Shown one piece after another: positions 1,541 to 44,253 of a stretch of DNA of 64,000 nt. Position 1 is the first letter of the stretch. Each line of letters begins with the position of its first letter. The stretch is taken from the IMG/VR virus record IMGVR_UViG_2558860244_000005, positions 1-64,000 of that record; one strand, given 5' to 3'. The notes below the pieces were generated by a model. It saw nothing but the letters and a program-made list of their open reading frames with translations, was not told the origin of the DNA and searched no databases. A program made the translations under genes and the position numbers. Source of the stretch: a virus. Lineage: Duplodnaviria > Caudoviricetes.

Positions 1541-2383
1541 TTATCTGAAGAATGGCTTCGCTTCGACAGAATGCTTGGCGAAGTTGATTACATCCTGATT
1601 CACATAGCTGCCGTCCCGAACGTCGATCACCTTAAACGGGAGCGCGTCGAGATCTTTCCGCGCCACGTCAAAAGCCTCCATCGTCGAAATGTCAGCCCCA
1701 GCAGGGGGAGGCTCAACCGCTAACAGCACATTTCCTGGCGATATACGACGGCGGTCGAGAAGAAGACCTAATCGCCTGCGCCAATGAGCCCCATGATCGA
1801 GCACGCTCATGGGAGATTTCTGAGAGAACGCCAACGGTTTGATCGCTCTCAACTCCGCGCCTTGATATGCTAGCGGGAAACTTACGGGAACTACATCGTC
1901 ATTCAGCTTCACAGACTTAAAGTAATTGATTCCTGCACGACGCAATTCACGCCGAATGTCTTTGACCAAAGACTCCTCGCGTGAATAAGTGACATTTTCC
2001 CTCTTAACAAACCTGTCGTAAAATTTCTCAACTATTTCCTCGAGGTCCATGTCATGTTCGGTAACTCGCGGATTGCTGAACAAAACACTCGATTCGCGGC
2101 GGCGAGTAACATCATTGAATATTGCCAACCCATCCATAGTAGAAAATGTCGGCAGGTATTCGGCGGCCCGACCTAACTCGATTTGCAAGTAAGAAATCAC
2201 GTCATCATATGCATCGTATGCAAGCTGGTCAAAAAATTGACGAATGCGCGTAAACCGACGCGGGGCAAGTTTGTAGCCTATCTTGCCATCCATCACGCGC
2301 GTGACGATAACACCGATATTCGCGAACTCTTCCGTCTCAGCGAATGGCCGAAATCGGATTACGGAATATTTAAAGACGCTCAC
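1541..2383 (-). CDS. DUF3037-like protein
   Basis: N-terminus FKYSVIRFRPFAETEEFANIGVI matches the DUF3037 pattern; 4-bp overlap with the upstream kinase; AT-richer than flanks. Confidence 0.72.
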   Translation of the reverse strand: MSVFKYSVIRFRPFAETEEFANIGVIVTRVMDGKIGYKLAPRRFTRIRQFFDQLAYDAYDDVISYLQIELGRAAEYLPTFSTMDGLAIFNDVTRRRESSVLFSNPRVTEHDMDLEEIVEKFYDRFVKRENVTYSREESLVKDIRRELRRAGINYFKSVKLNDDVVPVSFPLAYQGAELRAIKPLAFSQKSPMSVLDHGAHWRRRLGLLLDRRRISPGNVLLAVEPPPAGADISTMEAFDVARKDLDALPFKVIDVRDGSYVNQDVINFAKHSVEAKPFFR

Positions 2384-3114
2384 GCGAGTTCATCCCAAAA
2401 TTCATTACCGCTAACGCGGTCAAGCGTTTCTAACGCATGATCGATCAAATCTGGTTCCTGCTCAAGCCACTCATCTGGCAAGCAATCCGCCACGACGTTC
2501 AGTTCGTCTTTAGCACGCAGCATACGCTCCCGAAGGCCGAATGAGAACTCTTTCCGCCGATCTAACGATCGCCATGATTGATGGCCAACATGAAGAGGTA
2601 GATCTGCCACAGCATATGTCGCTGAGAATGCTAAATTATGATCGATTACGACAAGCTCTTTTGTGGCTAAATTGACCAATAGATTAACATTACCACCATG
2701 GTCTGTCAGTGTCCTGTCGTCATTTCTAATCCAATGATCGAAAACATAGACGCTGGCAAGAAGTGAGGCGGGAAAGTCTTGGCGCATCACAATCAGAAAA
2801 TCGCTGATCGGCTCTTTCCATAAGGAGGCGAAGCTTGGCTCACTGCCGATTCGACGGACGGTCGCATCGTAAGCACCTTGAGCAACCATTGCAGGTGACA
2901 GCGATGCGATTGCGAAGTCGGGTATTGGGAGACCGATTGAGCGCCCAAGGACTGCACAGAGAACCTCAGAAATTTTACCCCGAGCAAGCGCTCCCTTGCC
3001 TTTCACACAATACGTATTGTCATCATCGAGCACGCATAAAACAGGCTCGGTCATGCCGCTCTCAATGGGCCGGACAATCTCCGTGATGCGGTGATGATCT
3101 AAATCGAGGCTCAT
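2380..3114 (-). CDS. HipA-like (HipA_2-type) protein kinase
   Basis: SGMTEP loop, YCVKG lysine, catalytic FDHWIRNDDR...N, VIDHNLAF. Confidence 0.85.
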   Translation of the reverse strand: MSLDLDHHRITEIVRPIESGMTEPVLCVLDDDNTYCVKGKGALARGKISEVLCAVLGRSIGLPIPDFAIASLSPAMVAQGAYDATVRRIGSEPSFASLWKEPISDFLIVMRQDFPASLLASVYVFDHWIRNDDRTLTDHGGNVNLLVNLATKELVVIDHNLAFSATYAVADLPLHVGHQSWRSLDRRKEFSFGLRERMLRAKDELNVVADCLPDEWLEQEPDLIDHALETLDRVSGNEFWDELA

Positions 3115-3791: not shown

Positions 3792-4445
3792 ATGTGCAAC
3801 TTGTACCGGATGACAGCGCCTGCGGAGGCGGTCGCGGGATTGTTCCGAGCGAGTACCGGAACCGCGCCGAACTTCGCGGCCGAGGTCTACCCCGGCTATC
3901 CCGGCCTTGTCGTTGCCGATGGCGCAATCCGAGCCATGAACTGGGGTTTCCCCCTCGTGCTCAAGAGCAAGAAGACCGGCGCGCCGCTCAAGCCAAAGCC
4001 GGTGAACAACACCCGCGAGGACAAGCTGCACACCGGCTTCTGGATCGACAGCTTCCGCAAACGGCGGTGCCTGATCCCTGTCACCGCCTGGGCAGAGGCC
4101 GAGGGCACGAAAGGCGCGATGACGCGGACGTGGTACTCGCTGCCCGATCAGGATCTATTCGCCGTCGCGGGCGTGTGGCGCCCTACCGCCGAGTGGGGCG
4201 ACGCCTACTCCATGGTCATGGTGGATGGATGCGAGCAGATGGCCGACGTGCATGACCGCATGCCGACCATTCTCGCCCGAGAGAATTGGGAACGCTGGAC
4301 AAACGGCGATCCGGACGAGGCCTTCGCGCTGTGCCGCATCTATGACGCCCCGCTGGTGGTCGATCGCACGGACGATCCTTGGTTCAAGAGAGCCAGCCCA
4401 CCACCTGCCCCACAAACGCCGTCGCCATCAGCAACGCTACTATGA
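3792..4445 (+). CDS. SOS response-associated peptidase (SRAP/HMCES/YedK family), copy 1
   Basis: MCNLY with catalytic Cys2, RRCLIP, conserved Glu (AWAEAEG), VHDRMP; start reassigned to ATG 3792. Confidence 0.92.
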   Translation: MCNLYRMTAPAEAVAGLFRASTGTAPNFAAEVYPGYPGLVVADGAIRAMNWGFPLVLKSKKTGAPLKPKPVNNTREDKLHTGFWIDSFRKRRCLIPVTAWAEAEGTKGAMTRTWYSLPDQDLFAVAGVWRPTAEWGDAYSMVMVDGCEQMADVHDRMPTILARENWERWTNGDPDEAFALCRIYDAPLVVDRTDDPWFKRASPPPAPQTPSPSATLL

Positions 4446-4543
4446 TCATCTCGGCCTGTTTCAGCATTGGCCGCTGATCGTCTGCGATCGGCCGGTAGGC
4501 AACGCCGGATGGATCCATGCTGGACCCAACAACCGGACGCGCC

Positions 4544-4924
4544 TCAATAGCTCAGCCAATCGAGTTCCGCCTCGTCCAACGCCTCGAACATATCGCCTTC
4601 CGCCTGGCCGACACGCAGGCGCTGACGGACTGCCTCAGGATCACCGTCCTTGGGAAAGCCGCGATCGGCCATGGCACACTTGGCCAGTTCGCCGACCAGC
4701 CCTCCGCGCCCAACCTGCATGAGCAACCAGCGGCCGAATGCCCCGCGCTCTGCGGGCGATGCCGTGCGCCCACTTGGCCGCAGGCGCGGATCGGGTGGTG
4801 CAGGCACGAAAGCCCGGTAATCTGGCCCTTTCGTGAAATCGAGAAAGGAGCCCCTGCCCCCGGCGATCCTGCTGACTTCCCTACGTAAGTCGTCGAGCGT
4901 TGGCGTGGTGGGCTTCTGTTCCAT
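4544..4924 (-). CDS. YozE/SAM-like domain protein, copy 1
   Basis: FGRWLLMQ...GELAKCAMADRGFP...EALDEAELDW; homologous to 41930-42295. Confidence 0.72.
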   Translation of the reverse strand: MEQKPTTPTLDDLRREVSRIAGGRGSFLDFTKGPDYRAFVPAPPDPRLRPSGRTASPAERGAFGRWLLMQVGRGGLVGELAKCAMADRGFPKDGDPEAVRQRLRVGQAEGDMFEALDEAELDWLSY

Positions 4925-4964
4925 GGCAATCCTCGCTGTCGAATCGGTAGCGGAAGCCTATCAT

Positions 4965-4979
4965 GTTCTCTATATGTTC
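4965..4979 (+). promoter_or_regulatory. Alphaproteobacterial LexA box GTTC-N7-GTTC
   Basis: GTTC TCTATAT GTTC in the divergent intergenic region between the YozE-like gene and the 57-aa ORF. Confidence 0.7.
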
Positions 4980-5021
4980 GCACCATGAGTCGGCGCTTGC
5001 GAGCGCGCAGGAGGACAACAG

Positions 5022-5195
5022 ATGGAACAAATCAAGGAAATCCGCCGGGCGGTGGCGAAGGCGCTGGAGACACGAGGTCTCGATAACCGGGAGTTCCTGC
5101 GGCAGATCCGCGCAGGAGAGCAGGACGACGGCCCTTACATGACCGGCGCGCTCGCCTGTGCTGCGATGATGACGAAGCAGCCCGCGCGCAGCTGA
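5022..5195 (+). CDS. 57-aa hypothetical protein
   Basis: RBS GGAGG upstream; MEQIKEIRRAVAKALETRGLDNREFLRQIRAGEQDDGPYMTGALACAAMMTKQPARS; below the ORF-track cutoff. Confidence 0.6.
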   Translation: MEQIKEIRRAVAKALETRGLDNREFLRQIRAGEQDDGPYMTGALACAAMMTKQPARS

Positions 5196-5199
5196 TGCC

Positions 5200-5520
5200 G
5201 TGCGCTATGTAGATGGCCTGCGGATCCCAACGCTGCTTTTCGAGGCCGCTGCCTGGCAATACTCGATCAAGGTTACATGCGCGTGCGGACGATCGGCGGT
5301 CTTCGATCCCCACGCGCTGTGGCATCGGTTCCAGCGCTCCCGGTGGGACGAGACCTTCGCTAAGGCGCGCGATCGCTTCTATTGCCGTGAGTGCTGGCGC
5401 ACAAAATGCCGCAAGCTGCGGCCGGTGAAGTTCGAGACCTGCCGCGAAGAGCCGACCGTGCGCCTGCCGATGCCGGACGAGCGGGAATGGAAACGCGCGA
5501 TCAATCGATTCCGAGGGTAG
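5200..5520 (+). CDS. Small Zn-finger protein (CxC...CxxC), copy 1
   Basis: CACG...FDPHALWHRF...CREC...EWKRAINRFRG; homologous to 42321-42662. Confidence 0.7.
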   Translation: MRYVDGLRIPTLLFEAAAWQYSIKVTCACGRSAVFDPHALWHRFQRSRWDETFAKARDRFYCRECWRTKCRKLRPVKFETCREEPTVRLPMPDEREWKRAINRFRG

Positions 5521-5527
5521 GCACGTC

Positions 5528-5818
5528 TCAGGCTTGGGTCATGATCGCGGCCAGCCCGCAAGTCACCGCGATCGGACCAATCCAGTCGAGCCATTGATCG
5601 AGTTTCGGCCAAACACGCATATCGAATACACCCCACCATGGCAGGTTCCGGCGAAGGCCGCCGCCGAACCGCTCGATCCAGCGGTACTCCGCCTGCGCAG
5701 CTTCCCGCCCGATGAAGTAGGCCGACGCAATCAAGGCACCGGCCCACCAATTATGAAATGCCAGACCGATCGCCACCTGAAGAACCAGCGCCATGGCTGG
5801 GTGCTGAAGATATTGCAT
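5528..5818 (-). CDS. Hypothetical membrane protein
   Basis: Hydrophobic N- and C-terminal segments; co-oriented behind the portal gene. Confidence 0.6.
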   Translation of the reverse strand: MQYLQHPAMALVLQVAIGLAFHNWWAGALIASAYFIGREAAQAEYRWIERFGGGLRRNLPWWGVFDMRVWPKLDQWLDWIGPIAVTCGLAAIMTQA

Positions 5819-5857: not shown

Positions 5858-6913
5858 TCAGGCGACTGCCTTCACCCGCTTCCTAAAGCGCACGACCTCG
5901 GCGCCCACGGCATCGTTCAATTCCAGAAACACCGACTGCAGCGGCTCGATCTCCAGTTCGAAGAACGCATCGGTCGCCTTCGTCACATCCCCGAAGCCCC
6001 CGGCATTGGCGGGCACAATGCCCAGCAGCTGGGGCGGCACTCGGTGCGCGGCCAGTACGTCGTCGCGCGTCGTGTTCTTGATCCCGAGAAACTCGTCCTT
6101 TGCGCCCGCCTCCGCAATCGACTTGATCTGGATCCCGGTATCCTTGCCGTTCGGCGAGTGGACGAACAGGTTTCGGAAATTCCCCGGCCCCTTCGATCGC
6201 TTCAGGGCATCGCGCATCTTGTCGACGTCGCCATCGGCAAACTCGCCGGTCACGTACATGATGTAGCCCGCGTGACTGCCGTTCTCGTAATAGCGACGGC
6301 GGAACAGCGTCGCGTTCTCGTTCAGCAGCGCCGACTGCAAGGCCGAGAGGTATTCCGGCAGGCCGTAAATTTCCTGATTCACGTCCGGCGCGATCAGCTG
6401 GTGAACCGTGCCCGGCGCGAACTCGACCTCGGGCTGATGGCCAGGCACCCACCAGAAATGCCCCGGCTCGACGCCGCGCCGGGTGTACTTGGCAAGCGCG
6501 TGGTCGAGTCGCAGCAGCCCGCCCAGGCGGTTGCGGGCCTCCTGCGCATAGGCGTTGCCCATCACCAGATAGTCCTGCGCCATGCCCTTGAATGCCGCGC
6601 GGCTGAGCCACTGGGTCGGTTCGAGGCTGGCGGCCAGCATGTTGCGCTTGAGGATGATCGCGCTGGAATGGTGCGGCGAGGCGCGGAACGCGCGGGCAAG
6701 GCCATGCAACGAGATCGGCGGCTCGTACCACCGCTGGTTGTGGTAGCATTCCAGCATGTCGAGCATCGTCGCCCGGCTGAGCACCGGCTCGGGATCCCCG
6801 AAGGTGAAGGCCTGCAATTCGCCGCGGTTGTCGTTGGCGGAGACGATCGCGCCTTGCGATGCCTCCGCCACTTCCTGTCGGCTCATATGGCGGGCACGGT
6901 TACGCTTGCTCAT
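5858..6913 (-). CDS. gpQ: Portal protein (P2 gpQ / PBSX family)
   Basis: AFTFGDPEPVL, HHSSAIILKRN, YGLPEYLSAL, FRRRYYENGSHAG. Confidence 0.95.
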   Translation of the reverse strand: MSKRNRARHMSRQEVAEASQGAIVSANDNRGELQAFTFGDPEPVLSRATMLDMLECYHNQRWYEPPISLHGLARAFRASPHHSSAIILKRNMLAASLEPTQWLSRAAFKGMAQDYLVMGNAYAQEARNRLGGLLRLDHALAKYTRRGVEPGHFWWVPGHQPEVEFAPGTVHQLIAPDVNQEIYGLPEYLSALQSALLNENATLFRRRYYENGSHAGYIMYVTGEFADGDVDKMRDALKRSKGPGNFRNLFVHSPNGKDTGIQIKSIAEAGAKDEFLGIKNTTRDDVLAAHRVPPQLLGIVPANAGGFGDVTKATDAFFELEIEPLQSVFLELNDAVGAEVVRFRKRVKAVA

Positions 6914-31236: not shown

Positions 31237-31899
31237 TCAGGTGCGGCGGAATACGCCAGCTACGCGGCCGATCACGGACACTTCGCCATCTGCAGCGACC
31301 TCCGGTGGAACCTGCGGATTATCGGCCATCAGCTTGTACTTCCCATCCGGCAACACCCGGACGCGCTTGATCGTGCCAAGCCCGCCATAGTTCAGCGCCC
31401 AGATCCCTTCCTGCCGGTCGATGATCTGCTGAGACCGGTCAATCATAACGATGTCCCGGTCGTTGATGGTCGGGTACATGCTGTCCCCTTGGGGCTTCAC
31501 GATCGATAGATGGGCCACGGCCGAATGGGTGAAGTTCCGTACCCAGTCTTCGGGAATCCACCGATCCACCCGCTCCATCACATTCTCATCGAGAAACCCC
31601 AGGCCCATGCCAATCGAGAGGTCAATCTCTTCGACCTTAACGAGCCCCATCTGCGCCGCGATCTCAGCTGGCGTCGGCGGTATAAACGCGTCTTCGCGGG
31701 GATCATCGATCTCGCCTGTCAAATAGGCAGGGGAGGTTTGCAGTACGCGAGCAATCTTGTGCAGATGTGAAGAATTTGCGGACTGCCCGGTAACGACCTT
31801 GCCGATCGTCTGCTGTGTCACACCAACCTCACGCGCTAAGGCAGACTGAGACATACCCAGTTCACGCATTCGTTCGGCAACACGGTCGCTTTTGATCAT
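31237..31899 (-). CDS. cI: CI-like repressor (HTH + S24 autopeptidase)
   Basis: SQSALAREVGVTQQTIG HTH; GDSMYP catalytic Ser; TIKR Lys; VIGRV. Confidence 0.93.
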   Translation of the reverse strand: MIKSDRVAERMRELGMSQSALAREVGVTQQTIGKVVTGQSANSSHLHKIARVLQTSPAYLTGEIDDPREDAFIPPTPAEIAAQMGLVKVEEIDLSIGMGLGFLDENVMERVDRWIPEDWVRNFTHSAVAHLSIVKPQGDSMYPTINDRDIVMIDRSQQIIDRQEGIWALNYGGLGTIKRVRVLPDGKYKLMADNPQVPPEVAADGEVSVIGRVAGVFRRT

Positions 31900-32313: not shown

Positions 32314-32798
32314 CGAAGCTGCGCGCCCCTCTGTCGTTCTCCCTCGCCATCACCACTGTCTGCGGCAAGATCGGTTGGGAAGCCGCTGCCAAGGTGACCG
32401 GGCGCTCTATTCGGACGGTTCGCCATTGGAGCGAAAGCGATCGGCACGGAACGCCGACGCTCGACCAAGCTATGGCCCTCGATCGCGCTTTCATCGAAGC
32501 GGGCGGCGATCATGGACCGATCCTTTCCTGCTACGCGCTGCAGCTGGACGTCGCGATGGTTGATGCCGTCGCCTGCCGCACCGCGCTGGCAGATGACGTC
32601 GCCCTATTTTCCCGCGAAGCTGGCGATGCCGTCGGCCGCTGCATTCAGGCCCTCGCGCCGGGCGCTTCGCCCGCGATGATACAGGCCGCCATTCTCGAAA
32701 CCGAAGAAGCTGACGCGATCGTTCCGCGCCTTCTCGGTCGGTTGAAAGCACTTCTGCCCGGCAATGGCGCCGGGGCCGAAGCTAGGGGGCAAATCTAG
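32310..32798 (+). CDS. CII-like regulatory protein
   Basis: N-terminal HTH-like GWEAAAKVTGRSIRTVRHWS; position after cro; ATGA overlap. Confidence 0.6.
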   Translation: MTKLRAPLSFSLAITTVCGKIGWEAAAKVTGRSIRTVRHWSESDRHGTPTLDQAMALDRAFIEAGGDHGPILSCYALQLDVAMVDAVACRTALADDVALFSREAGDAVGRCIQALAPGASPAMIQAAILETEEADAIVPRLLGRLKALLPGNGAGAEARGQI

Positions 32799-32799
32799 C

Positions 32800-33096
32800 A
32801 TGTCACGTCACGCGAAACTTCCACACGTAACCTGCCCGGCTTGCGGCGGTCGCGCTTTTGCACGGTCTTCCGGCAAGTCGAGCGCGACCTTCCGGGAGGT
32901 CTATTACGACTGCCGGAATCCGGATGCCTGCGGGCTCCGGTTCGTCGTCGAGATGCAGGCCGTCCGCACGGTTCGGCCCAGCAGCTACCCGAACCCCCTG
33001 CACACCCTGCCGATGACGCAGTGGCGCCCGGCCGCGAACGATCGCGCCGACAATGACAACGGCTCAGAGCCGGAAACCACCGCCGCCGGCACCTGA
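32800..33096 (+). CDS. ogr: Ogr/Delta-like Zn-finger late activator
   Basis: CPACG...YYDCRNPDACGLRF...VRPS..PNP. Confidence 0.88.
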   Translation: MSRHAKLPHVTCPACGGRAFARSSGKSSATFREVYYDCRNPDACGLRFVVEMQAVRTVRPSSYPNPLHTLPMTQWRPAANDRADNDNGSEPETTAAGT

Positions 33097-37351: not shown

Positions 37352-37453
37352 ACTTTTCTGAGGCCTTTGATGCGATTGCCATCGCCATTGCGCACTCTCT
37401 AGCGCGGCAGCACCATGCCGAATCGATGGCTAATTGCACCAAGGAAGTTTCGA

Positions 37454-39076
37454 ATGCGCACGGCGATCTACGCCCGTTTCAGCAGCCAACTGCAAAAGGA
37501 CTCCTCGATCGAGGATCAGGTCCGCGTTTGCACCGAGCGCGCTGAGCGGGAAGGATGGACGGTTACGGCCGTCTTTTCGGACTATGCGATGTCCGGCGCC
37601 GTGCGCGATCGCCCCGGTCTGAATTCCCTCATCGAACATATCAGGGCCGGTGGCGCCGACCAGATATTGGCCGAAGCCATCGACCGCCTCTCTCGCGACC
37701 AAGAGGATCTCGCTGGCATCCATAAGCGAGTTCGCTTCTTGGGCGCACGCATATTCACGCTATCGGAAGGCCCGATCGACGAACTGCAGATTGGCTTCAA
37801 GGGCACGATGGCCAGCCTGTTCCGGAAAGATTTGGCCGATAAGATCAAACGCGGTCAGGGCGGAAGGGTCGCCGCTGGCCGTACCCCCGGCAACATTGTC
37901 TACGGCTATCGGAAAGTTCATCGCCTGGATTCTCGTGGCGAAGCCGAGCGCGGACTGCGCGAGATCGATCCCGAACAAGCGGAGATCGTGCGCCGGGTAT
38001 ACGCCGAATACATCGCTGGCGAATCACCCCTCGCAATTGCCCGGCGGCTTAATGCGGAAGGCATCCCCTCCCCTTCCGGCGGCACTTGGAACGTCAGCGC
38101 CATCAACGGCGACGCTGTGCGCGGCAACGGCCTGCTCTGCAACGAGATCTACATCGGCCAGCTCGTTTACAATCGCACCACGATGGTTCGCGACCCCGAC
38201 ACGCGTAAGCGCGTGCCCCGCGTGAACCCGGCCGAGCAATGGCAGCGCCAGGACGTTCCTCACCTCCGCATCGTCGATGATGAAAGCTGGGAGGCTGTTC
38301 GTCGGCGAAAGTCGCTGAGAGAGAACTGGGACTTCAACAAACAGCGCAGACCGAAGCGCCTGCTTTCGGGTCTCGTAAAGTGCGGCCAGTGCGGCGGTGC
38401 CATAGTCGTGATCGGCAGCGAGAAGTGGGGCTGCGCCAACACACGCCGCGCCGGGACATGCACGAACCGCCGCACGATCGACAGCACCGTGCTGGAATCT
38501 CGCGTGCTCGCAGGTCTGCGGAAAGAGCTACTCAGCCCGGAGCGGGTTAGCCTGGTCGTGAAGGCGTATCACCAGCATCGAGCGCGGCTTGACCGGGAAG
38601 CGTTCGAGGCCGCTGCGACCAACCGGAAGCGGATCGACGAACTGGAGAAGCAAATCTCAAACCTCGTCAGCGCGATCGCCGCCGGTGCCGCCGACGTCCC
38701 CGAAATCGTGGAAGCGCTTCAACGCGCCAAGGCCGAGCGCGAGCAACTGACTGAAGCGATCGGATCAGCGAACGCCGCCCAAGTGATCAGCCTGCACCCG
38801 GCCATTGCCGAAGCATACCGGAACGCTGTCGAGGACATCACCCGGCACCTGAATGGCGAAGAGGAAAGCGCCCGAACCGCCCGGTCTGCGCTGCGTACTC
38901 TGATAGATGCGGTCATCCTCACTCCGAAGGAAAACGGTCGCGGACTGCACATCGATCTGCAAGGAAGGCTCGAAAACGTCGTGAGCCTCGCTACCGGCGA
39001 GGCTCCGATGGAGCGTGAAGGTATGTTGCAGGTGGTAGCGGAGGAGGGACTCGAACCCCCGACACGCGGATTATGA
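37454..39076 (+). CDS. Large serine recombinase (prophage integrase)
   Basis: IYARFSS catalytic Ser, DRLSR, recombinase domain, LLSGLVKCGQCG Zn ribbon; stop lies inside the att/tRNA fragment. Confidence 0.95.
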   Translation: MRTAIYARFSSQLQKDSSIEDQVRVCTERAEREGWTVTAVFSDYAMSGAVRDRPGLNSLIEHIRAGGADQILAEAIDRLSRDQEDLAGIHKRVRFLGARIFTLSEGPIDELQIGFKGTMASLFRKDLADKIKRGQGGRVAAGRTPGNIVYGYRKVHRLDSRGEAERGLREIDPEQAEIVRRVYAEYIAGESPLAIARRLNAEGIPSPSGGTWNVSAINGDAVRGNGLLCNEIYIGQLVYNRTTMVRDPDTRKRVPRVNPAEQWQRQDVPHLRIVDDESWEAVRRRKSLRENWDFNKQRRPKRLLSGLVKCGQCGGAIVVIGSEKWGCANTRRAGTCTNRRTIDSTVLESRVLAGLRKELLSPERVSLVVKAYHQHRARLDREAFEAAATNRKRIDELEKQISNLVSAIAAGAADVPEIVEALQRAKAEREQLTEAIGSANAAQVISLHPAIAEAYRNAVEDITRHLNGEEESARTARSALRTLIDAVILTPKENGRGLHIDLQGRLENVVSLATGEAPMEREGMLQVVAEEGLEPPTRGL

Positions 39077-39078: not shown

Positions 39079-39355
39079 TCTTGATTGGTACTGATTTATA
39101 AGGGTTTTTCTGTAAACACAACCCCATAGAAACCGCAGATTTCCGTGACCTCTCCGGGCGTCTGTAAACTCGAAAAGCGCCCTCCCCGGCATCGTTTTTC
39201 CGCGACGGACATCGGCCGCGGCTACTTGGGGACCTCGCACCCTAAGCCTGCCATTGTTGGTTGCCGTTGGTTGAGCGGATCAATCTGGACGGCAGCAATC
39301 CGGAATTTTAACCCTCGCCTGATTACGAATGCCCAGCCAACTGCGAGGACGCGGA

Positions 39356-39559
39356 ATGTATCAAATCATCGGCCTGCAACGCGATCAAAAGCGTGTCCTA
39401 GTCGCCACCCCGAAGAACGCCGAAATGGCCCTCAACAGTTTCCGTGCTGCGCAGAATCTGTTTCCCCGCGTTGTCGTGCTGACACCCGAGGGAGTGGAAA
39501 TTAGCGGCTTCGAGCTAAGTCGGCGCTACCACGAAGAGGAAAGAGATCGCTACGACTAG
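39356..39559 (+). CDS. Small hypothetical protein (67 aa)
   Basis: GAGG RBS; MYQIIGLQRDQKRVLVATPKNAEMAL... Confidence 0.5.
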   Translation: MYQIIGLQRDQKRVLVATPKNAEMALNSFRAAQNLFPRVVVLTPEGVEISGFELSRRYHEEERDRYD

Positions 39560-39785
39560 CGGCCGGGAAGCCCCATTTGCGAAAGTCTCCCCTGCCTCCC
39601 GAAGAGAGTGGCTAAGCCTGTAAGGCGCAGATTTCGGGGCTTTGGGCTTATTACAGAGTCGGAACAGCCCTAGAACAAACCGGTTTTTCCGGTGCGCTTC
39701 ACCGGAAACGCACCGGACAGAAGTCTGGGGTAATTCGCCTACGTCTTGCTCCCAGCGTCAACCGCCCCGAAAAAAATGCCGCAGC

Positions 39786-40499
39786 TTAGTTGAAGTCGAC
39801 GGAAGGGCCGTTTGGACCATTGCTGATCACAACGCCTCCTCCTACGTGCGTGACTCCGGTCGCCCCGCCGCCCGAACGATCATTGAAAGTTGTTTGCCCG
39901 CCGTTGAGACGAACATTGCTTCCTGTCTTCACAGAGGTTTCCACCGAGGAATCAGCACGGCCGAAAAAGGCATTATTGAGGGTCTGCTTCGCCCCCCGCC
40001 CGGTTGTGAATTGCGCTTCCGCGCCAGTGTGTCGGAGGCCGCTAAAATCAGCCAAGCCGCCGTCTTCCGCTTGTGAGTGAAGCGGTCGCCCCTCGATCGT
40101 CACATCACGCGCAACCGTTTCGCCCCCGACCGTCAAGATGCGTACGATCTGTGAATCATGCTCCAAACGCGTCGTGAGCTCTGACAACGCTGAAACGTCT
40201 GCGATCTTGGTTTGAGCCGCCTCCAAGATCTCAACACGTTCCCGCAGCGAATTTGCGGAGACAACATCTGGCACCAAAGCTTGAACCTGGACGGCGACCC
40301 CCTTCATCAGCCCGAGGAGATCAGGCTCTAACACTCCGTTCTTGAAGCGATCAAGAATGACAGCACACAACGGGCCAATGGCTGGAATGCTAGAAATGTA
40401 GGCAGCAGCAAGCGAGGTTGCTATTGACGGTGCTGCCGATTGGCTGTCCGCCTTTGTGAGTTCCTCTACCAGGACATCGATTTCATTTGCATCTACCAT
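39786..40499 (-). CDS. Hypothetical accessory protein (237 aa)
   Basis: RBS GAGGAGG 5 nt upstream of ATG 40499; helical N-half, Gly/Thr/Asn-rich C-half; AT-richer. Confidence 0.7.
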   Translation of the reverse strand: MVDANEIDVLVEELTKADSQSAAPSIATSLAAAYISSIPAIGPLCAVILDRFKNGVLEPDLLGLMKGVAVQVQALVPDVVSANSLRERVEILEAAQTKIADVSALSELTTRLEHDSQIVRILTVGGETVARDVTIEGRPLHSQAEDGGLADFSGLRHTGAEAQFTTGRGAKQTLNNAFFGRADSSVETSVKTGSNVRLNGGQTTFNDRSGGGATGVTHVGGGVVISNGPNGPSVDFN

Positions 40500-40840
40500 T
40501 GGCACCTCCTCGGATTTGTTCCTCGAAGTTGGGAGTTTGCTGAAAAAAAAGGAAGCTCCACCTTTATCGATGATCCTGAACTTTTAGAATTCTCCCAATA
40601 TGGAACAGTTTTAAACGCACCCGTATATTTCTCCTGCGACTCCGAGCCGGGCTTCGCAAACTGAGGATTTCCGCCCTTCTCGGGCGTCTAACCTACCCCG
40701 AACCGCCTACGCATTCCTGCCGCGTCCCGTGGGCAATGTCTAACCTTCTACCAAGCGCATCCATATCGGTAGCAACCCAAATTGCTGCCCTCATTTCGAC
40801 CGGCAAACATGGGCGATGGCCGGACGAATCGAGCACTTCC

Positions 40841-41494
40841 TCATAGCAGCGTTGATGGCGCTGGGCTTTGTGGCGCAGGCAGTGAGCTGGCTTTCTTGAA
40901 CCAGGGCTCGTCTGTGCGATCGACAAGCAGCGGGCCGGTCCAGATCTGACACAAAGCGAAAGCCTCGTCCGGACTGCCGGCGACCCACTGCTCCCAATCG
41001 TTCGCCGCCAGGATAGTTGGCATTCTGTCGTGAACGTCGGCCATCTGTTCGCAGCCATCGACCATGACCATGGAATAGGCGTTGCCCCACTCGTCAGTGG
41101 GGCGCCAGATCCCGGCGACGGCGAATAGCTCCTGATCAGGGAGGGAGTACCAGGTGCGCGTCATGCGCCCGGCGGCGCCTTCTGCCTCCGCCCAAGCCGT
41201 GACCGGGATCAGGCAGCGACGATCACGGAAGCTATCCCGCCACATCGGATTGCCGCGCAGCTTATCGTCTCGCGCATTGTTCGTGGCGGTGGGCTTCAGA
41301 GGCTTGCCGGTCTTCTTGCTGACGGCATGGCGGGGAAAGCCCCAGGTCATCGCGCGGACCTCGCCCTCGGCGACTACGAGGCCGGTGTATTTCGGATAGA
41401 CCTCGGCCGCAAAGTTCGGAGAACCGGCTGCCTTGGCCCGGAACAGCTTCGCCACGGCATCGGCCGGCGCGGTCATTCGGTAGAGATTGCACAT
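40841..41494 (-). CDS. SOS response-associated peptidase (SRAP), copy 2
   Basis: MCNLY, RRCLIP, AWAEAEG, VHDRMP; about three-quarters identical to copy 1 by manual alignment. Confidence 0.92.
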   Translation of the reverse strand: MCNLYRMTAPADAVAKLFRAKAAGSPNFAAEVYPKYTGLVVAEGEVRAMTWGFPRHAVSKKTGKPLKPTATNNARDDKLRGNPMWRDSFRDRRCLIPVTAWAEAEGAAGRMTRTWYSLPDQELFAVAGIWRPTDEWGNAYSMVMVDGCEQMADVHDRMPTILAANDWEQWVAGSPDEAFALCQIWTGPLLVDRTDEPWFKKASSLPAPQSPAPSTLL

Positions 41495-41609
41495 CCCGCG
41501 AGTGTCGCCGAGCGGCCGGGTAACTCCCAGCAAAATCTTGCGAGCGATGTGAACGCGTTATCGCGGAATCCGTCCGCTCGCATCCATCTTCGCGCCTTCG
41601 GCTGTATGA

Positions 41610-41624
41610 GAACAAACTTAGAAC
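41610..41624 (+). promoter_or_regulatory. Alphaproteobacterial LexA box GAAC-N7-GAAC
   Basis: GAAC AAACTTA GAAC in the divergent region between SRAP and the 83-aa gene. Confidence 0.72.
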
Positions 41625-41666
41625 ATGCTATGAGCGATGGCTCGATGAGTCGCGAAAGGAACTCCC

Positions 41667-41918
41667 ATGGCAGATGATCAACTCACCCTTCCATTGTCCG
41701 ACGATGACCTGATCCGCTTGGCGCGGCATCGGTACGACCAGGCAGACCGGGACGGCGCGACGGAAGAGGACTTTCGTCAGCTCTGTGACATCTTTCCGGC
41801 CGTGCTCCAGCGATTGCAGGACAAGGGAGAGGCCACGCGCGATATCGTTGAAATCCAGCACATCGACCTCAGGCGCCCCGAGTCGTGGCGGCATCTGATG
41901 TCCGAGCCGGCGGAATAG
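41667..41918 (+). CDS. 83-aa protein with N-terminal QLTLPL motif
   Basis: RBS AAGGA; MADDQLTLPLSDD... Confidence 0.7.
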   Translation: MADDQLTLPLSDDDLIRLARHRYDQADRDGATEEDFRQLCDIFPAVLQRLQDKGEATRDIVEIQHIDLRRPESWRHLMSEPAE

Positions 41919-41929
41919 GCAGCGCACCG

Positions 41930-42295
41930 ATGACAGATATCCAGAAGAGCACTCCCGACGATCTGCGACGGGAAATCACGCGCATTCTCGGTAGCAAGGG
42001 AGTGTTCGCGGGCGCGGACTATGGCGCGTTCACACCGGCCGCGCCCGACGAGCGCCTTCGAGAGACCGGCCGCACGCTGTCGCCGGCAGAGCGCGGCGCC
42101 TTCGGTCGATGGCTGGTCCGGCAGACGGATGCGAAGGGCCTGCTCGGCAACCTGGTGAAAGCTGCGAAAGCCGATCCTCGCTTCCCGCTGGACGGAGACC
42201 CCGAGGCCGTTCGAAAGCGCCTGGGCGAGTGCGGCGCCGATGGCGACATGTTCGAGGCTGTGGATGAGGCCGAGATCGATTGGCTCAGCTACTGA
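41930..42295 (+). CDS. YozE/SAM-like domain protein, copy 2
   Basis: FGRWLVRQ...LGNLVKAAKADPRFP...EAVDEAEIDWLSY. Confidence 0.72.
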   Translation: MTDIQKSTPDDLRREITRILGSKGVFAGADYGAFTPAAPDERLRETGRTLSPAERGAFGRWLVRQTDAKGLLGNLVKAAKADPRFPLDGDPEAVRKRLGECGADGDMFEAVDEAEIDWLSY

Positions 42296-42320
42296 GCCTG
42301 GACCAGCGGCATGATCGACC

Positions 42321-42662
42321 ATGCGCTTTAACAAGGGCGGATTTCATGAGCCCACATCGATCACGGAAGCCGCGTTGCTCAGCTATGCGATCGTGCCGGT
42401 GTGCCGCTGTGGGCATCGGTGTTCGTTCGATCCCTGGGGGCTCTGGTATCATTTCGAGCGCCGGCGGTGGGATGGCGAGTTTTCGGCGGCGAAGGTGCGC
42501 TTCTGGTGCCGGGTCTGCGCATCCAGGCAAAAGGCGCCAGGCAGAAAAGACCGGGTAAGGCCGATTCGCTTCGACTTGGAGCATCCCCCGAAGGTGGATG
42601 TTCGGCTTCCCCGGCCGCCTGAGCATGAGTGGAAACGCGTGGTGAACCGGACGCGCTGCTGA
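42321..42662 (+). CDS. Small Zn-finger protein (CxC...CxxC), copy 2
   Basis: CRCG...FDPWGLWYHF...CRVC...EWKRVVNRTRC. Confidence 0.7.
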   Translation: MRFNKGGFHEPTSITEAALLSYAIVPVCRCGHRCSFDPWGLWYHFERRRWDGEFSAAKVRFWCRVCASRQKAPGRKDRVRPIRFDLEHPPKVDVRLPRPPEHEWKRVVNRTRC

Positions 42663-42674
42663 CCGCGCTCTTAC

Positions 42675-42962
42675 CTATTCAGAGACGCGGCCGCTCCCGG
42701 CTCGAGCCTCCGCGTCGTGCTCGCGGATCGCGTCGACCTTCGCTGCGCACTTGTTGAACGCCTTGATGTAGATGCCGCGGCTATCGATGATAGAGGCGAC
42801 CGTCTCCTGGGGCACATCCTGCACGGTGCAACGTTCCAGCAGACCGGCCGGGATTCCCTTGTAGGCAGGCGGCGGCGCCGAGGCGATCTCACCTTTGCTG
42901 TTCGAGCAGGCGGCGCAGGTCAGGAGGGAGGCGGCGAGCCATAAGTTCGCGAACTTCCGCAT
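42675..42962 (-). CDS. Outer-membrane spanin lipoprotein (Rz1-like)
   Basis: MRKFANLWLAASLLTCAAC lipobox, Pro-rich, overlaps the Rz 3' end. Confidence 0.78.
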   Translation of the reverse strand: MRKFANLWLAASLLTCAACSNSKGEIASAPPPAYKGIPAGLLERCTVQDVPQETVASIIDSRGIYIKAFNKCAAKVDAIREHDAEARAGSGRVSE

Positions 42963-43281
42963 TGCTTTTCTCCAGTTCCTTGATTTGGGCGGACGAGGCG
43001 ACGCCCTGCTGTTCGATGAGCGCGAGCTTGTCCTGGAGCAGCAGGACGTTCTTCTGCTCCAGCGCGCGCAGGCGGTCCTGCTCCGCGTACCGGTCGGCCC
43101 AGCCTCGGTTCGCGCTGACCAGATCGCCGACGCGGGTGTCGAGCGTGGCGATCTGGTCGTTTTGCCGTTGGATATGCAGGTATGCGGCAACGGTCGCACC
43201 GATGCCGCAGATCGCCAGCACGCCGATCATGGCGAGCAGCTCGGACTTGAAAGGCGTGATCAGGTTCGAAAGCCATTTCAC
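42889..43281 (-). CDS. Inner-membrane spanin (Rz-like)
   Basis: GTG start overlapping the holin stop; TM then coiled coil; ends LPPDLRRLL. Confidence 0.78.
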   Translation of the reverse strand: MKWLSNLITPFKSELLAMIGVLAICGIGATVAAYLHIQRQNDQIATLDTRVGDLVSANRGWADRYAEQDRLRALEQKNVLLLQDKLALIEQQGVASSAQIKELEKSNAEVRELMARRLPPDLRRLLEQQR

Positions 43282-43643
43282 AGCTGTTCCTCCTCTTGAG
43301 CCTTGGCGGCCTCGACGCGCTTGTCGGTATTCGCGCGCAGCTTGATCCCAAGGCGTTCGTAGACGATGCGCTCCAGGAGCCGGATCGAGACATTCGCCCC
43401 GAGCCAACCGAAGATGCCAACGATGAACCCGCTATAAAGTGGATCGACCTCCATCGCGCGGCACAGGAGCATGACCAGAAAGCCCACGAGACCGGACGCA
43501 GCGACCTCCGTGAGCGCCCGCCACCCGTTCAGCTTGTTGCCCTTGTCGTTCTCACGCATGACGTAGCCCAGGCCGCCGGCAACGGCGGACAACAGGACAT
43601 AGCCGAGTGACGTGAGCCAGTCGGATAGCGAGAAGTGTTCCAT
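43278..43643 (-). CDS. Holin (LydA-like)
   Basis: Three TM segments, charged C-terminus, next to endolysin. Confidence 0.8.
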   Translation of the reverse strand: MEHFSLSDWLTSLGYVLLSAVAGGLGYVMRENDKGNKLNGWRALTEVAASGLVGFLVMLLCRAMEVDPLYSGFIVGIFGWLGANVSIRLLERIVYERLGIKLRANTDKRVEAAKAQEEEQL

Positions 43644-43659
43644 TGCGCCCCCAAACTCC

Positions 43660-44253
43660 TTAGCGCGCCCAGGCGCCGGTTTTGCCGTGCAGCCAGGTGA
43701 GGAACTGGCCCACGGTCTTGCCCTTCAGTATCGAAGGATTTGCTTTCGTCGCGGCCTCGCCGGCGATCGCGTCGGCGCGATCGTCCACGTCGGCAGCGAT
43801 GACCTTTGCCGCGGTTCCGGCGCCGAAGAAGTGCGCCGCATAGAGCGACGCCTTGTTGATGGGGATGCCCTTGGCGCGCAGGGCCGCTGCGTTCTTCTCC
43901 GTGAAGGTTTTCGCGCGAGCAAGCTGCTCCGAGACGGGAGGCTTCAAGCCGCCGAAAGCGAGGTTCATGTTCGAGCCCCAAGAGCCGCCTTCGCCAATCC
44001 AGGTCGCGCGAATGAACTGGTAGAGGCCCGAGGCGCTGGAGGTGCTGGCCTTGATGTAGGGGCGGTCGCCGCTCTCGATCTTGGAGAGCATGGGCCAATA
44101 ATCGTCGGGGATGCTGCTCGTTTCAGACATGCGCGGGGCTCCAAAAGCGTCGAGAAGATTGTCGAGGGCGTGGACGTTGCCGGGATCGTCGAAGAGGCCA
44201 GGCCGCGCGATGGCCCGGACGGCGTCGAAGGCGGCTTTACGGGGATCGGTCAT
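43660..44253 (-). CDS. Endolysin, lytic-transglycosylase-like
   Basis: KIESGDRP...SSASGLYQFIRATW...LYAAHFFG. Confidence 0.85.
   Translation of the reverse strand: MTDPRKAAFDAVRAIARPGLFDDPGNVHALDNLLDAFGAPRMSETSSIPDDYWPMLSKIESGDRPYIKASTSSASGLYQFIRATWIGEGGSWGSNMNLAFGGLKPPVSEQLARAKTFTEKNAAALRAKGIPINKASLYAAHFFGAGTAAKVIAADVDDRADAIAGEAATKANPSILKGKTVGQFLTWLHGKTGAWAR

Follow-up and report, generated by a model that had tools for sequence, protein, structure and literature searches.

We investigated two gene cassettes that each combine a LexA (SOS) box with genes for a SRAP protein, a YozE-like protein, a small leader protein and a zinc (Zn)-ribbon protein, in a 64,000-nucleotide (nt) stretch of viral DNA (Caudoviricetes; IMG/VR record IMGVR_UViG_2558860244_000005, positions 1 to 64,000), hereafter termed the window. 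SRAP/HMCES has recently come to be understood as a protector of abasic sites, for which the bacterial partners and regulation are almost unknown. The 64-kb window contains two tandem prophages of a Novosphingobium-like host with a genome of 4.86 Mb. Prophage 1 is P2-like and encodes a phrog_70 major head protein together with a large terminase of P2 type, a portal protein and a GPD hub of the baseplate; prophage 2 is siphovirus-like, with a phrog_10 head protein, a phrog_12 portal, a phrog_9 terminase and a tape measure protein. The structural modules of the two prophages are unrelated.

Two rearranged cassettes around a LexA box

The first cassette (copy A, 3792-5520) lies in prophage 1, flanked by a HipA_2/DUF3037 gene pair on one side and by the P2-type portal gene on the other, and the second (copy B, 40841-42662) sits right after the lysis genes of prophage 2. 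Their features, with open reading frames (ORFs) measured in amino acids (aa) and isoelectric points given as pI, are as follows.

Copy A
3792-4445, plus strand: SRAP gene (Pfam PF02586), its product starting MCNLY and ending ...PSATLL
4544-4924, minus strand: YozE-like gene, divergent from box A, its product with a disordered N-terminal extension and a C-terminal helical domain that is putatively SAM-like
4965-4979, plus strand: LexA box A (GTTCTCTATATGTTC), separated by 40 nt from the start of the YozE-like gene and by 42 nt from the downstream ATG of the 57-aa leader
5022-5195, plus strand: 57-aa leader ORF, the first gene after box A
5200-5520, plus strand: Zn-ribbon protein gene, 106 aa, GTG start, pI 10

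Copy B
40841-41494, minus strand: SRAP gene, divergent from box B with 115 nt between, its product ending ...APSTLL
41610-41624, minus strand: LexA box B (GTTCTAAGTTTGTTC), reading GAAC-N7-GAAC on the plus strand, 42 nt before the ATG of the 83-aa leader
41667-41918, plus strand: acidic 83-aa leader, beginning MADDQLTLPL
41930-42295, plus strand: YozE-like gene, its product 64% identical to that of copy A
42321-42662, plus strand: Zn-ribbon protein gene, 113 aa, pI 10.2

We recovered both cassettes with the gene models and boxes that a first-pass annotation of the window had described. By BLASTP between the two copies, the SRAP proteins are 74% identical (E 1e-113), in line with the three quarters that had been estimated, the YozE-like proteins 64% (E 1e-49) and the Zn-ribbon proteins 44% (E 6e-26). 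The 57-aa and 83-aa small ORFs gave no alignment and are unrelated, so that each copy has, as annotated, a small ORF of its own. Gene order and orientation are shuffled between the copies and the box is kept across these rearrangements, again in agreement with the annotation. At the DNA level the copies are ~74% identical over SRAP and ~73% identical over the end of the YozE-like gene, indicating that they diverged long ago and do not represent a recent duplication. The stop of the 57-aa leader and the GTG of the Zn gene are separated by a gap of 4 nt in copy A.

Each cassette contains one perfect GTTC-N7-GTTC box, corresponding to the alphaproteobacterial LexA operator motif, located in divergent intergenic DNA and in both cases at the same distance from the first gene of the rightward operon. 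This motif is listed as the Caulobacter SOS box (da Rocha et al. 2008, as given in Table 1 of PMC9578287). We identified it upstream of both recA (contig C47) and lexA (contig C100) of the host, with box A sharing 12 of 15 positions with the operator of host lexA (GTTCTCTCATTGTTC), indicating that the boxes are of the host SOS operator type, as had been proposed. The strict form TGTTC-N6-TGTTC was found at only 20 sites in the host genome, including four on the contig of the window and one before umuDC (contig C74). Within the window, six perfect boxes were observed against 1.9 expected, with at least six in 2 of 100 shuffles; the number of boxes is by itself weak evidence, but their position is not. 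A scan with the sigma-70 consensus, which does not cover alphaproteobacterial promoters, identified no promoter in either cassette.

We additionally noted boxes outside the two cassettes. A third perfect box (39662-39676, minus strand) lies between a 76-aa ORF (39329-39559, plus strand) and the stop of a 239-aa ORF (39786-40505, minus strand), adjoining a hairpin-rich stretch and with no ORF of at least 20 aa behind it. The contig of the window (C127) has a fourth box of the strict form at position 70498, ~6.5 kb past the end of the window, in an intergenic region among the early genes of prophage 2 and adjoining a 90-aa Cro/YdaS-like gene (69331-69603, minus strand). Host LexA may act directly on the prophage 2 switch via this box.

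The conserved unit and its mobile carriers

We surveyed 113 loci (80 genomic and 33 viral; 112 in some counts) encoding relatives of the Zn-ribbon protein. A perfect box was identified within 1.5 kb upstream of the Zn gene in 109 of the 113 loci, in gene orientation in 106 of these, with modal distances to the Zn gene of about 60 bp or 210-260 bp. In 93 of 112 loci the box lies within 300 bp upstream, and the box rate in these 300 bp (2.78 per kb) is ~69 times the background elsewhere in the same loci (0.040 per kb). No box with up to one mismatch was found in the ~680 bp upstream of SRAP copy A, which is convergent with the YozE-like gene, and at 18 chromosomal SRAP loci without a Zn gene no perfect box was found in the 700 bp upstream (the closest one, in a single locus, lies at 746 bp), indicating that SOS control belongs to the leader-Zn operon and not to SRAP. 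On the strength of these sequence patterns, the leader-Zn operon is very probably under SOS (LexA) control. The module under host SOS control envisaged in the first-pass annotation was thus retained for the boxed leader-Zn operon, but did not extend to SRAP copy A or to the chromosomal SRAP genes.

Of 112 loci, 83 have a SRAP gene within 3 kb of the Zn gene. Four arrangements occur among these: SRAP lies downstream of the Zn gene, either in the same orientation (44 loci) or convergent with it (9), or upstream of it, either divergent (20) or in the same orientation (10). In an even sample of 301 Sphingomonadales genomes, 14 of 19 strong Zn matches adjoin SRAP, and the SRAP subfamily of the window was itself present in 95 of the 301 genomes, mostly as a single copy per genome. 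No Zn gene was found at the 18 chromosomal SRAP loci (L159-L176), which come from 18 Sphingomonadaceae genomes. The YozE-like gene was identified in only 9 of the 113 Zn loci, mostly near relatives of copy A. The conserved unit is therefore the box, a small leader and the Zn ribbon, with SRAP as a frequent recruit and the YozE-like protein as an occasional one. This differs from the single conserved cassette of four genes that had first been proposed: the expected co-occurrence was borne out for the Zn and SRAP genes and for the box, but the YozE-like gene is rare and SRAP often occurs without a Zn gene.

The unit was found in several classes of mobile element. Thirty-three loci have the Zn operon flanked by a portal and a terminase gene of P2 type, and other Zn loci adjoin a 700-aa ParB_N protein, DUF2958 or a type IV secretion system (T4SS) coupling protein, in regions resembling integrative and conjugative elements (ICEs). 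We additionally identified the Zn gene on 13 plasmids of Sphingomonadaceae in PLSDB, of which six are typed as conjugative and four as mobilisable; the Zn protein was not found in the deposited phage genomes of INPHARED. All named genomic hosts are Sphingomonadales, the remainder being unclassified bins. In the even sample, 28 of the 301 genomes contain the Zn gene, all from one family; among 18 further genomes from the genus of the host, only 1 carries it. Across 400 class-wide genomes, the profile from alignment A2 gave no clear match outside Sphingomonadaceae, the single match in another family being marginal (E 7.3e-5). The patchy distribution and the phage, ICE and plasmid carriers together indicate a lineage-restricted mobile accessory unit, and the mobility that had been proposed from the two prophages alone applies to P2-like phages, siphovirus-like prophages, ICE-like regions (with ParB, DUF2958 and the T4SS coupling protein) and plasmids.

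The Zn-ribbon protein is ~105 aa long, with a pI of 10 and 14% aromatic residues. Four cysteines are invariant (alignments A1 and A2): the closely spaced C27 and C29, which form a CxC in copy A, and C62 and C65 of a CxxC. The C-terminal motif LPxPxxEWKRAxxRFR is nearly invariant; copy B is a member of alignment A2. An AlphaFold2 model from a 61-sequence alignment reached a pLDDT of 90.2 and a pTM of 0.77. No fold match was found for this model by Foldseek in the PDB (best E 1.5), by a wide VIA-align search (best Z 2.8) or among the viral predicted structures of BFVD (best E 0.24), and matches in the ESM Atlas were to unnamed clusters only. Neither the Zn protein nor the 57-aa and 83-aa leaders matched anything in Pfam, PHROGs or NCBIfam. 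A search of 1.84 billion proteins with the Zn profile returned 376 clusters. Almost all of the best 150 of these are stand-alone proteins of 56-173 aa, nearly all below 130 aa. Nine of the longer ones were tested and contain no Pfam domain, so that no informative fusion was found. The Zn protein is predicted to bind nucleic acid.

We also identified short Zn relatives (~75 aa, covering the N-terminal half only) at eight loci in other Sphingomonadaceae (L185-L192). A perfect box lies immediately upstream of seven of the eight, and SRAP is a neighbour in two or three cases.

Assignment of the YozE-like protein draws on family and structural comparison. Against PF06855, copy A scored 14.7 bits (E 0.037), below the cut-off of 25, and copy B gave no match, while 22 of 37 relatives match the family at E values of 0.01 or below (best 6.5e-6). 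The C-terminal domain was modelled by AlphaFold2 with a pLDDT of ~90, and its top three Foldseek matches are all UPF0346/YozE structures (2o6k, 2kvs and 2fj6), with probabilities of 0.97-0.75 and target-normalised TM scores of 0.64-0.47, but with E values of 0.4-1. The gene order of copy B recurs in Novosphingobium sp. RL4 (L127), beside phage lysis genes. Among 28 further YozE-like loci, about half have a perfect box within ~600 bp upstream. Three YozE-like loci examined in detail are all boxed, and in one boxed locus a short YozE gene adjoins ParB, DUF2958 and ArdC.

Gene content, homology, box conservation, co-location, mobility and terminal motifs, all of which were analysed directly, point to a LexA-repressed mobile accessory kit that would deal with damage to DNA that is being replicated or is single-stranded (ssDNA), a reading that we regard as moderately probable. 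The same loci could also be explained without any system, as independent SOS-regulated cargo genes (morons) that share accessory slots and a regulator, and whose adjacency has no functional meaning. Such an explanation accommodates the variable composition of the loci, with at least three leader families, few YozE-like genes and 27 of 112 Zn loci without SRAP in the fetched DNA. It also fits the YozE-like genes that are often boxed alone, with neither Zn nor SRAP nearby, the absence of a box from SRAP copy A, and the location of both cassettes in known cargo positions, beside a P2-like portal and after siphovirus lysis genes. However, the 74% adjacency of Zn and SRAP genes is kept through four arrangements and across phage, ICE and plasmid backbones, where we estimate that chance adjacency would be well under 1%, given a few SRAP genes per 3-5 Mb genome, and only a few bases separate the leader stop from the Zn start in copy A and in many other loci. 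We accordingly view the absence of any functional system as rather doubtful.

Clamp-type motifs and possible links to damage tolerance

At least three unrelated families occupy the first position after the box. The 57-aa leader family precedes the Zn gene in 30 loci (copy A counted) and is also found on plasmid pTK4; the 83-aa leader family of copy B comprises 46 clusters; and leaders of the DUF6771 family (PF20561), on which we found no literature, occur in 41 loci. Most DUF6771 leaders end in DQLxLxL at the extreme C-terminus, after a variable linker. Members of the 83-aa family have the N-terminus MAxDQLTLPL or, where this is absent, a C-terminal extension ending in DDQ[LM]QLxLxx[LF] (alignment A4). 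QLxLxL and QL[SD]LF are known beta-clamp-binding peptides, and as a control we note that the host DinB homologue ends in QLSLL. A clamp-type motif is thus terminal and family-conserved in two unrelated leader families; the 57-aa family has none. Conservation of a peptide in sequence but not in the end of the protein at which it sits is typical of a short linear motif. The leaders that carry it may dock on the beta sliding clamp (DnaN).

Hda was considered as a native QLxLPL control, but the DnaA-family search returned mostly low-scoring matches to short regions of ~100 aa, which we took to be ATPases of insertion sequence elements, and this control was dropped.

Both SRAP proteins exceed the PF02586 cut-off of 27.1 bits (87 bits for copy A and 104.4 bits for copy B), and both begin MCNLY, placing Cys2 right after the initiator methionine. 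Cys2, Glu102 and His154 of copy A align with structure 2f20 (Glu102 with FEW and His154 with HRMP), and the protein is predicted, by analogy, to cross-link abasic sites in ssDNA through Cys2. The window SRAPs therefore have the SRAP domain in common with E. coli YedK and human HMCES, along with Cys2 at the N-terminus and the Glu and His that align. In HMCES, a PCNA-interacting (PIP) box at the C-terminus provides a tether to PCNA. The SRAPs of Sphingomonadaceae likewise have a short C-terminal tail, which in 11 of the 18 chromosomal single-copy orthologues (L159-L176) ends in QxxL[LF], resembling the QLSLL tail of the host DinB and suggesting a clamp tethering of bacterial SRAP that would parallel the PIP box of HMCES. 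The window SRAPs differ from YedK and HMCES in being borne by mobile elements and paired with a Zn ribbon, and the P[ST]LL tails of the mobile copies have no Gln. We found no literature joining SRAP and conjugative elements.

In an ICE-like region of Sphingopyxis indica, we additionally identified a 169-aa gene (L029, 6324-6833) between the Zn gene and SRAP. Its product shows weak similarity, below the Pfam cut-off (E 0.0012), to SRAP over the C-terminal half of that domain; it has no Cys2 start and may be an inactive SRAP paralogue.

We identified two loci in which the unit adjoins genes of translesion synthesis. On plasmid pTK4 of Sphingobium sp. TKS (L158; NZ_CP005088.1, 60382-74687), one box lies between two operons. 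The first contains imuA, imuB, a DUF6771 gene, a further gene and dnaE2. The second contains a 53-aa gene, a gene of the 57-aa family, the Zn gene and a gene of 120 aa, and beyond it lie two SRAP genes and a HIRAN gene. In the host, a third, distant Zn homologue (6435-6725, minus strand), with a 65-aa leader of its own, lies directly upstream of LexA-boxed umuD-umuC (contig C74, 4600-9400; L003), on a 14.9-kb contig that also contains a resolvase and SSB. The imuAB-dnaE2 operon of pTK4 also includes a 113-aa gene whose product has a hydrophobic N-terminal segment resembling a signal peptide.

In the sequence of events that we propose for the kit, DNA damage, or ssDNA entering by conjugation, would activate RecA, leading to the cleavage of LexA and the opening of the divergent promoter region. 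Leaders with the terminal QLxLxL peptide would then dock on the beta sliding clamp, while the Zn-ribbon protein would bind nucleic acid, and SRAP would shield abasic sites, at a stalled fork or gap, helping both the element and its host to come through induction, transfer or repair. We infer LexA binding, damage induction and physical contact between the parts from sequence, and all regulation and function of the kit is proposed in silico. A more specific version, which we put forward only tentatively, is that the kit could be a bacterial mobile counterpart of PCNA-tethered HMCES, in which, after SOS induction, QLxLxL adaptors on the clamp, a Zn ribbon of new fold recognising ssDNA or the lesion, and a clamp-tailed SRAP would form one lesion-shielding complex.

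Several of our observations weigh against this interpretation. The clamp idea leaves the P2-like version uncovered, since no clamp-like motif is present in the 57-aa leader of copy A, and the SRAPs of mobile elements mostly end in P[ST]LL, without the Gln of the canonical clamp motif. No relative of known function could be detected by sequence or fold for the Zn protein. SRAP is missing from the 27 Zn loci mentioned above, and SRAP copy A lies outside the control of the box. None of the 113 Zn loci has imuA, imuB, dnaE2 or umuC within 6 kb, and only one weak HIRAN match was found, indicating that the arrangement on pTK4 is not general and that the links on pTK4 and contig C74 are anecdotes. 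Finally, the surveyed loci are phylogenetically related, and their counts overstate their independence.

The same motifs could instead serve a takeover of the host, in which the leaders would occupy the host clamp and the Zn protein would block host replication or translesion polymerases, the element thereby gaining resources or avoiding mutagenesis, with SRAP as a bystander. The presence of terminal QLxLxL in two unrelated leader families, switching ends within one of them, is compatible with this, as are the restriction of the genes to mobile elements, patchily distributed among genomes, and the stand-alone form of almost all of the best-matching Zn proteins. However, the DUF6771 gene inside the imuAB-dnaE2 operon of pTK4 suggests cooperation with translesion synthesis rather than its blocking, the leader of the P2-like copy has no motif with which to occupy the clamp, and the close link to SRAP is left unexplained. 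We consider a takeover to be quite improbable.

Comparison with known SOS-linked systems

The kit shares the logic of SOS-linked SRAP neighbourhoods with Zn-ribbon partners, which was already published in 2013. Aravind, Anand and Iyer (PMC3765255), who took the name SRAP from the SOS genes found around it and pointed out its presence in prophages, describe two uncharacterised Zn-ribbon families, ZnR1 and ZnR2, that adjoin SRAP and Ku in alphaproteobacteria. In their Afipia examples, Ku is divergent from a series of ZnR1, ZnR2, SRAP and DinB, and ZnR2 is divergent from SRAP. As in the loci studied here, small Zn-chelating proteins are thus encoded just before SRAP or divergently from it, a comparison made by gene order only. 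In contrast, our cassettes have no Ku, ligase or DinB nearby and are carried by phages, ICEs and plasmids; their LexA box follows the Zn operon and not SRAP; and leaders with clamp-like tags are not described there. The suggestion in the first-pass annotation that this is an undescribed system consequently applies to the Zn family, which is without annotation, and not to the association of SRAP with Zn ribbons or its presence in prophages. Its further suggestion, that the cassettes counter defences that generate abasic sites, found nothing in its support, with PADLOC returning no match for eight window proteins (YozE-like copy B not included) or for the DUF6771 leader.

The direct-repeat operator is the same as that before host recA, lexA and umuDC in the alphaproteobacterial LexA regulon, but the boxed genes here are unannotated mobile families and not core repair genes. 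The small operon likewise resembles the tum operon of coliphage 186 in being LexA-repressed, as judged here from its box, and in lying near the packaging end of a P2-like prophage. No homology was found between the two; the repressor here has an S24 domain, and the same genes are found in non-phage elements.

This resemblance raises the question of whether the operon is an induction trigger, encoding a LexA-controlled antirepressor like Tum that would inactivate the repressor of the element on damage. In 33 loci the operon adjoins P2-type portal and terminase genes, the region in which coliphage 186 carries its SOS operon, and its small LexA-boxed protein is encoded at a distance from the immunity region. 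However, the CI-type repressor of the P2-like prophage (31237-31899, minus strand) contains HTH_3 and Peptidase_S24 domains, and is therefore predicted to cleave itself on RecA activation, making an antirepressor unneeded. One Zn family with a nearly invariant C-terminus is moreover found in unrelated phages, ICEs and plasmids, which argues for a conserved host or DNA target rather than diverse element repressors. No Pfam similarity to DinI or Tum was found, and Zn relatives adjoin umuDC and imuAB-dnaE2. A Tum-like antirepressor is thus unlikely, and we give it very little weight.

Whichever reading holds, the analysis provides a Zn-ribbon family, lacking annotation and any known fold, whose genes almost always follow an SOS box, small proteins whose terminal clamp-type tag moves between ends within one family, and clamp-type tails on SRAPs across one bacterial family. 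If the parts of the kit act together, bacteria and their mobile elements would anchor the shielding of abasic sites at the replisome, much as PCNA allows in eukaryotes, and phages and conjugative elements would carry a damage-tolerance kit of their own, timed by the host SOS switch. If they act separately, several gene families would still be added to the alphaproteobacterial LexA regulon.

The remaining features that we noted in the two prophages are as follows.

32764-33096, plus strand: 110-aa CxxC Zn-finger protein of the P2-like prophage, which by its sequence pattern resembles the Ogr/Delta late activator
37415-39076: large serine integrase, listed with the genes of prophage 1
42675-43407: two overlapping ORFs of prophage 2 without a family match, read as spanins from position alone
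43278-44253: transglycosylase of prophage 2 and a 121-aa ORF, which in our reading is a holin

The HipA_2 kinase (E 3e-60) and the DUF3037 protein form a tight pair (1541-3114, minus strand) in the same accessory slot as copy A, just to its left. On the other side, the Zn gene and the portal are separated by a 96-aa ORF (5528-5818, minus strand), which we read as a membrane protein and which matches phrog_1443 (E 5e-24), a family of unknown function.

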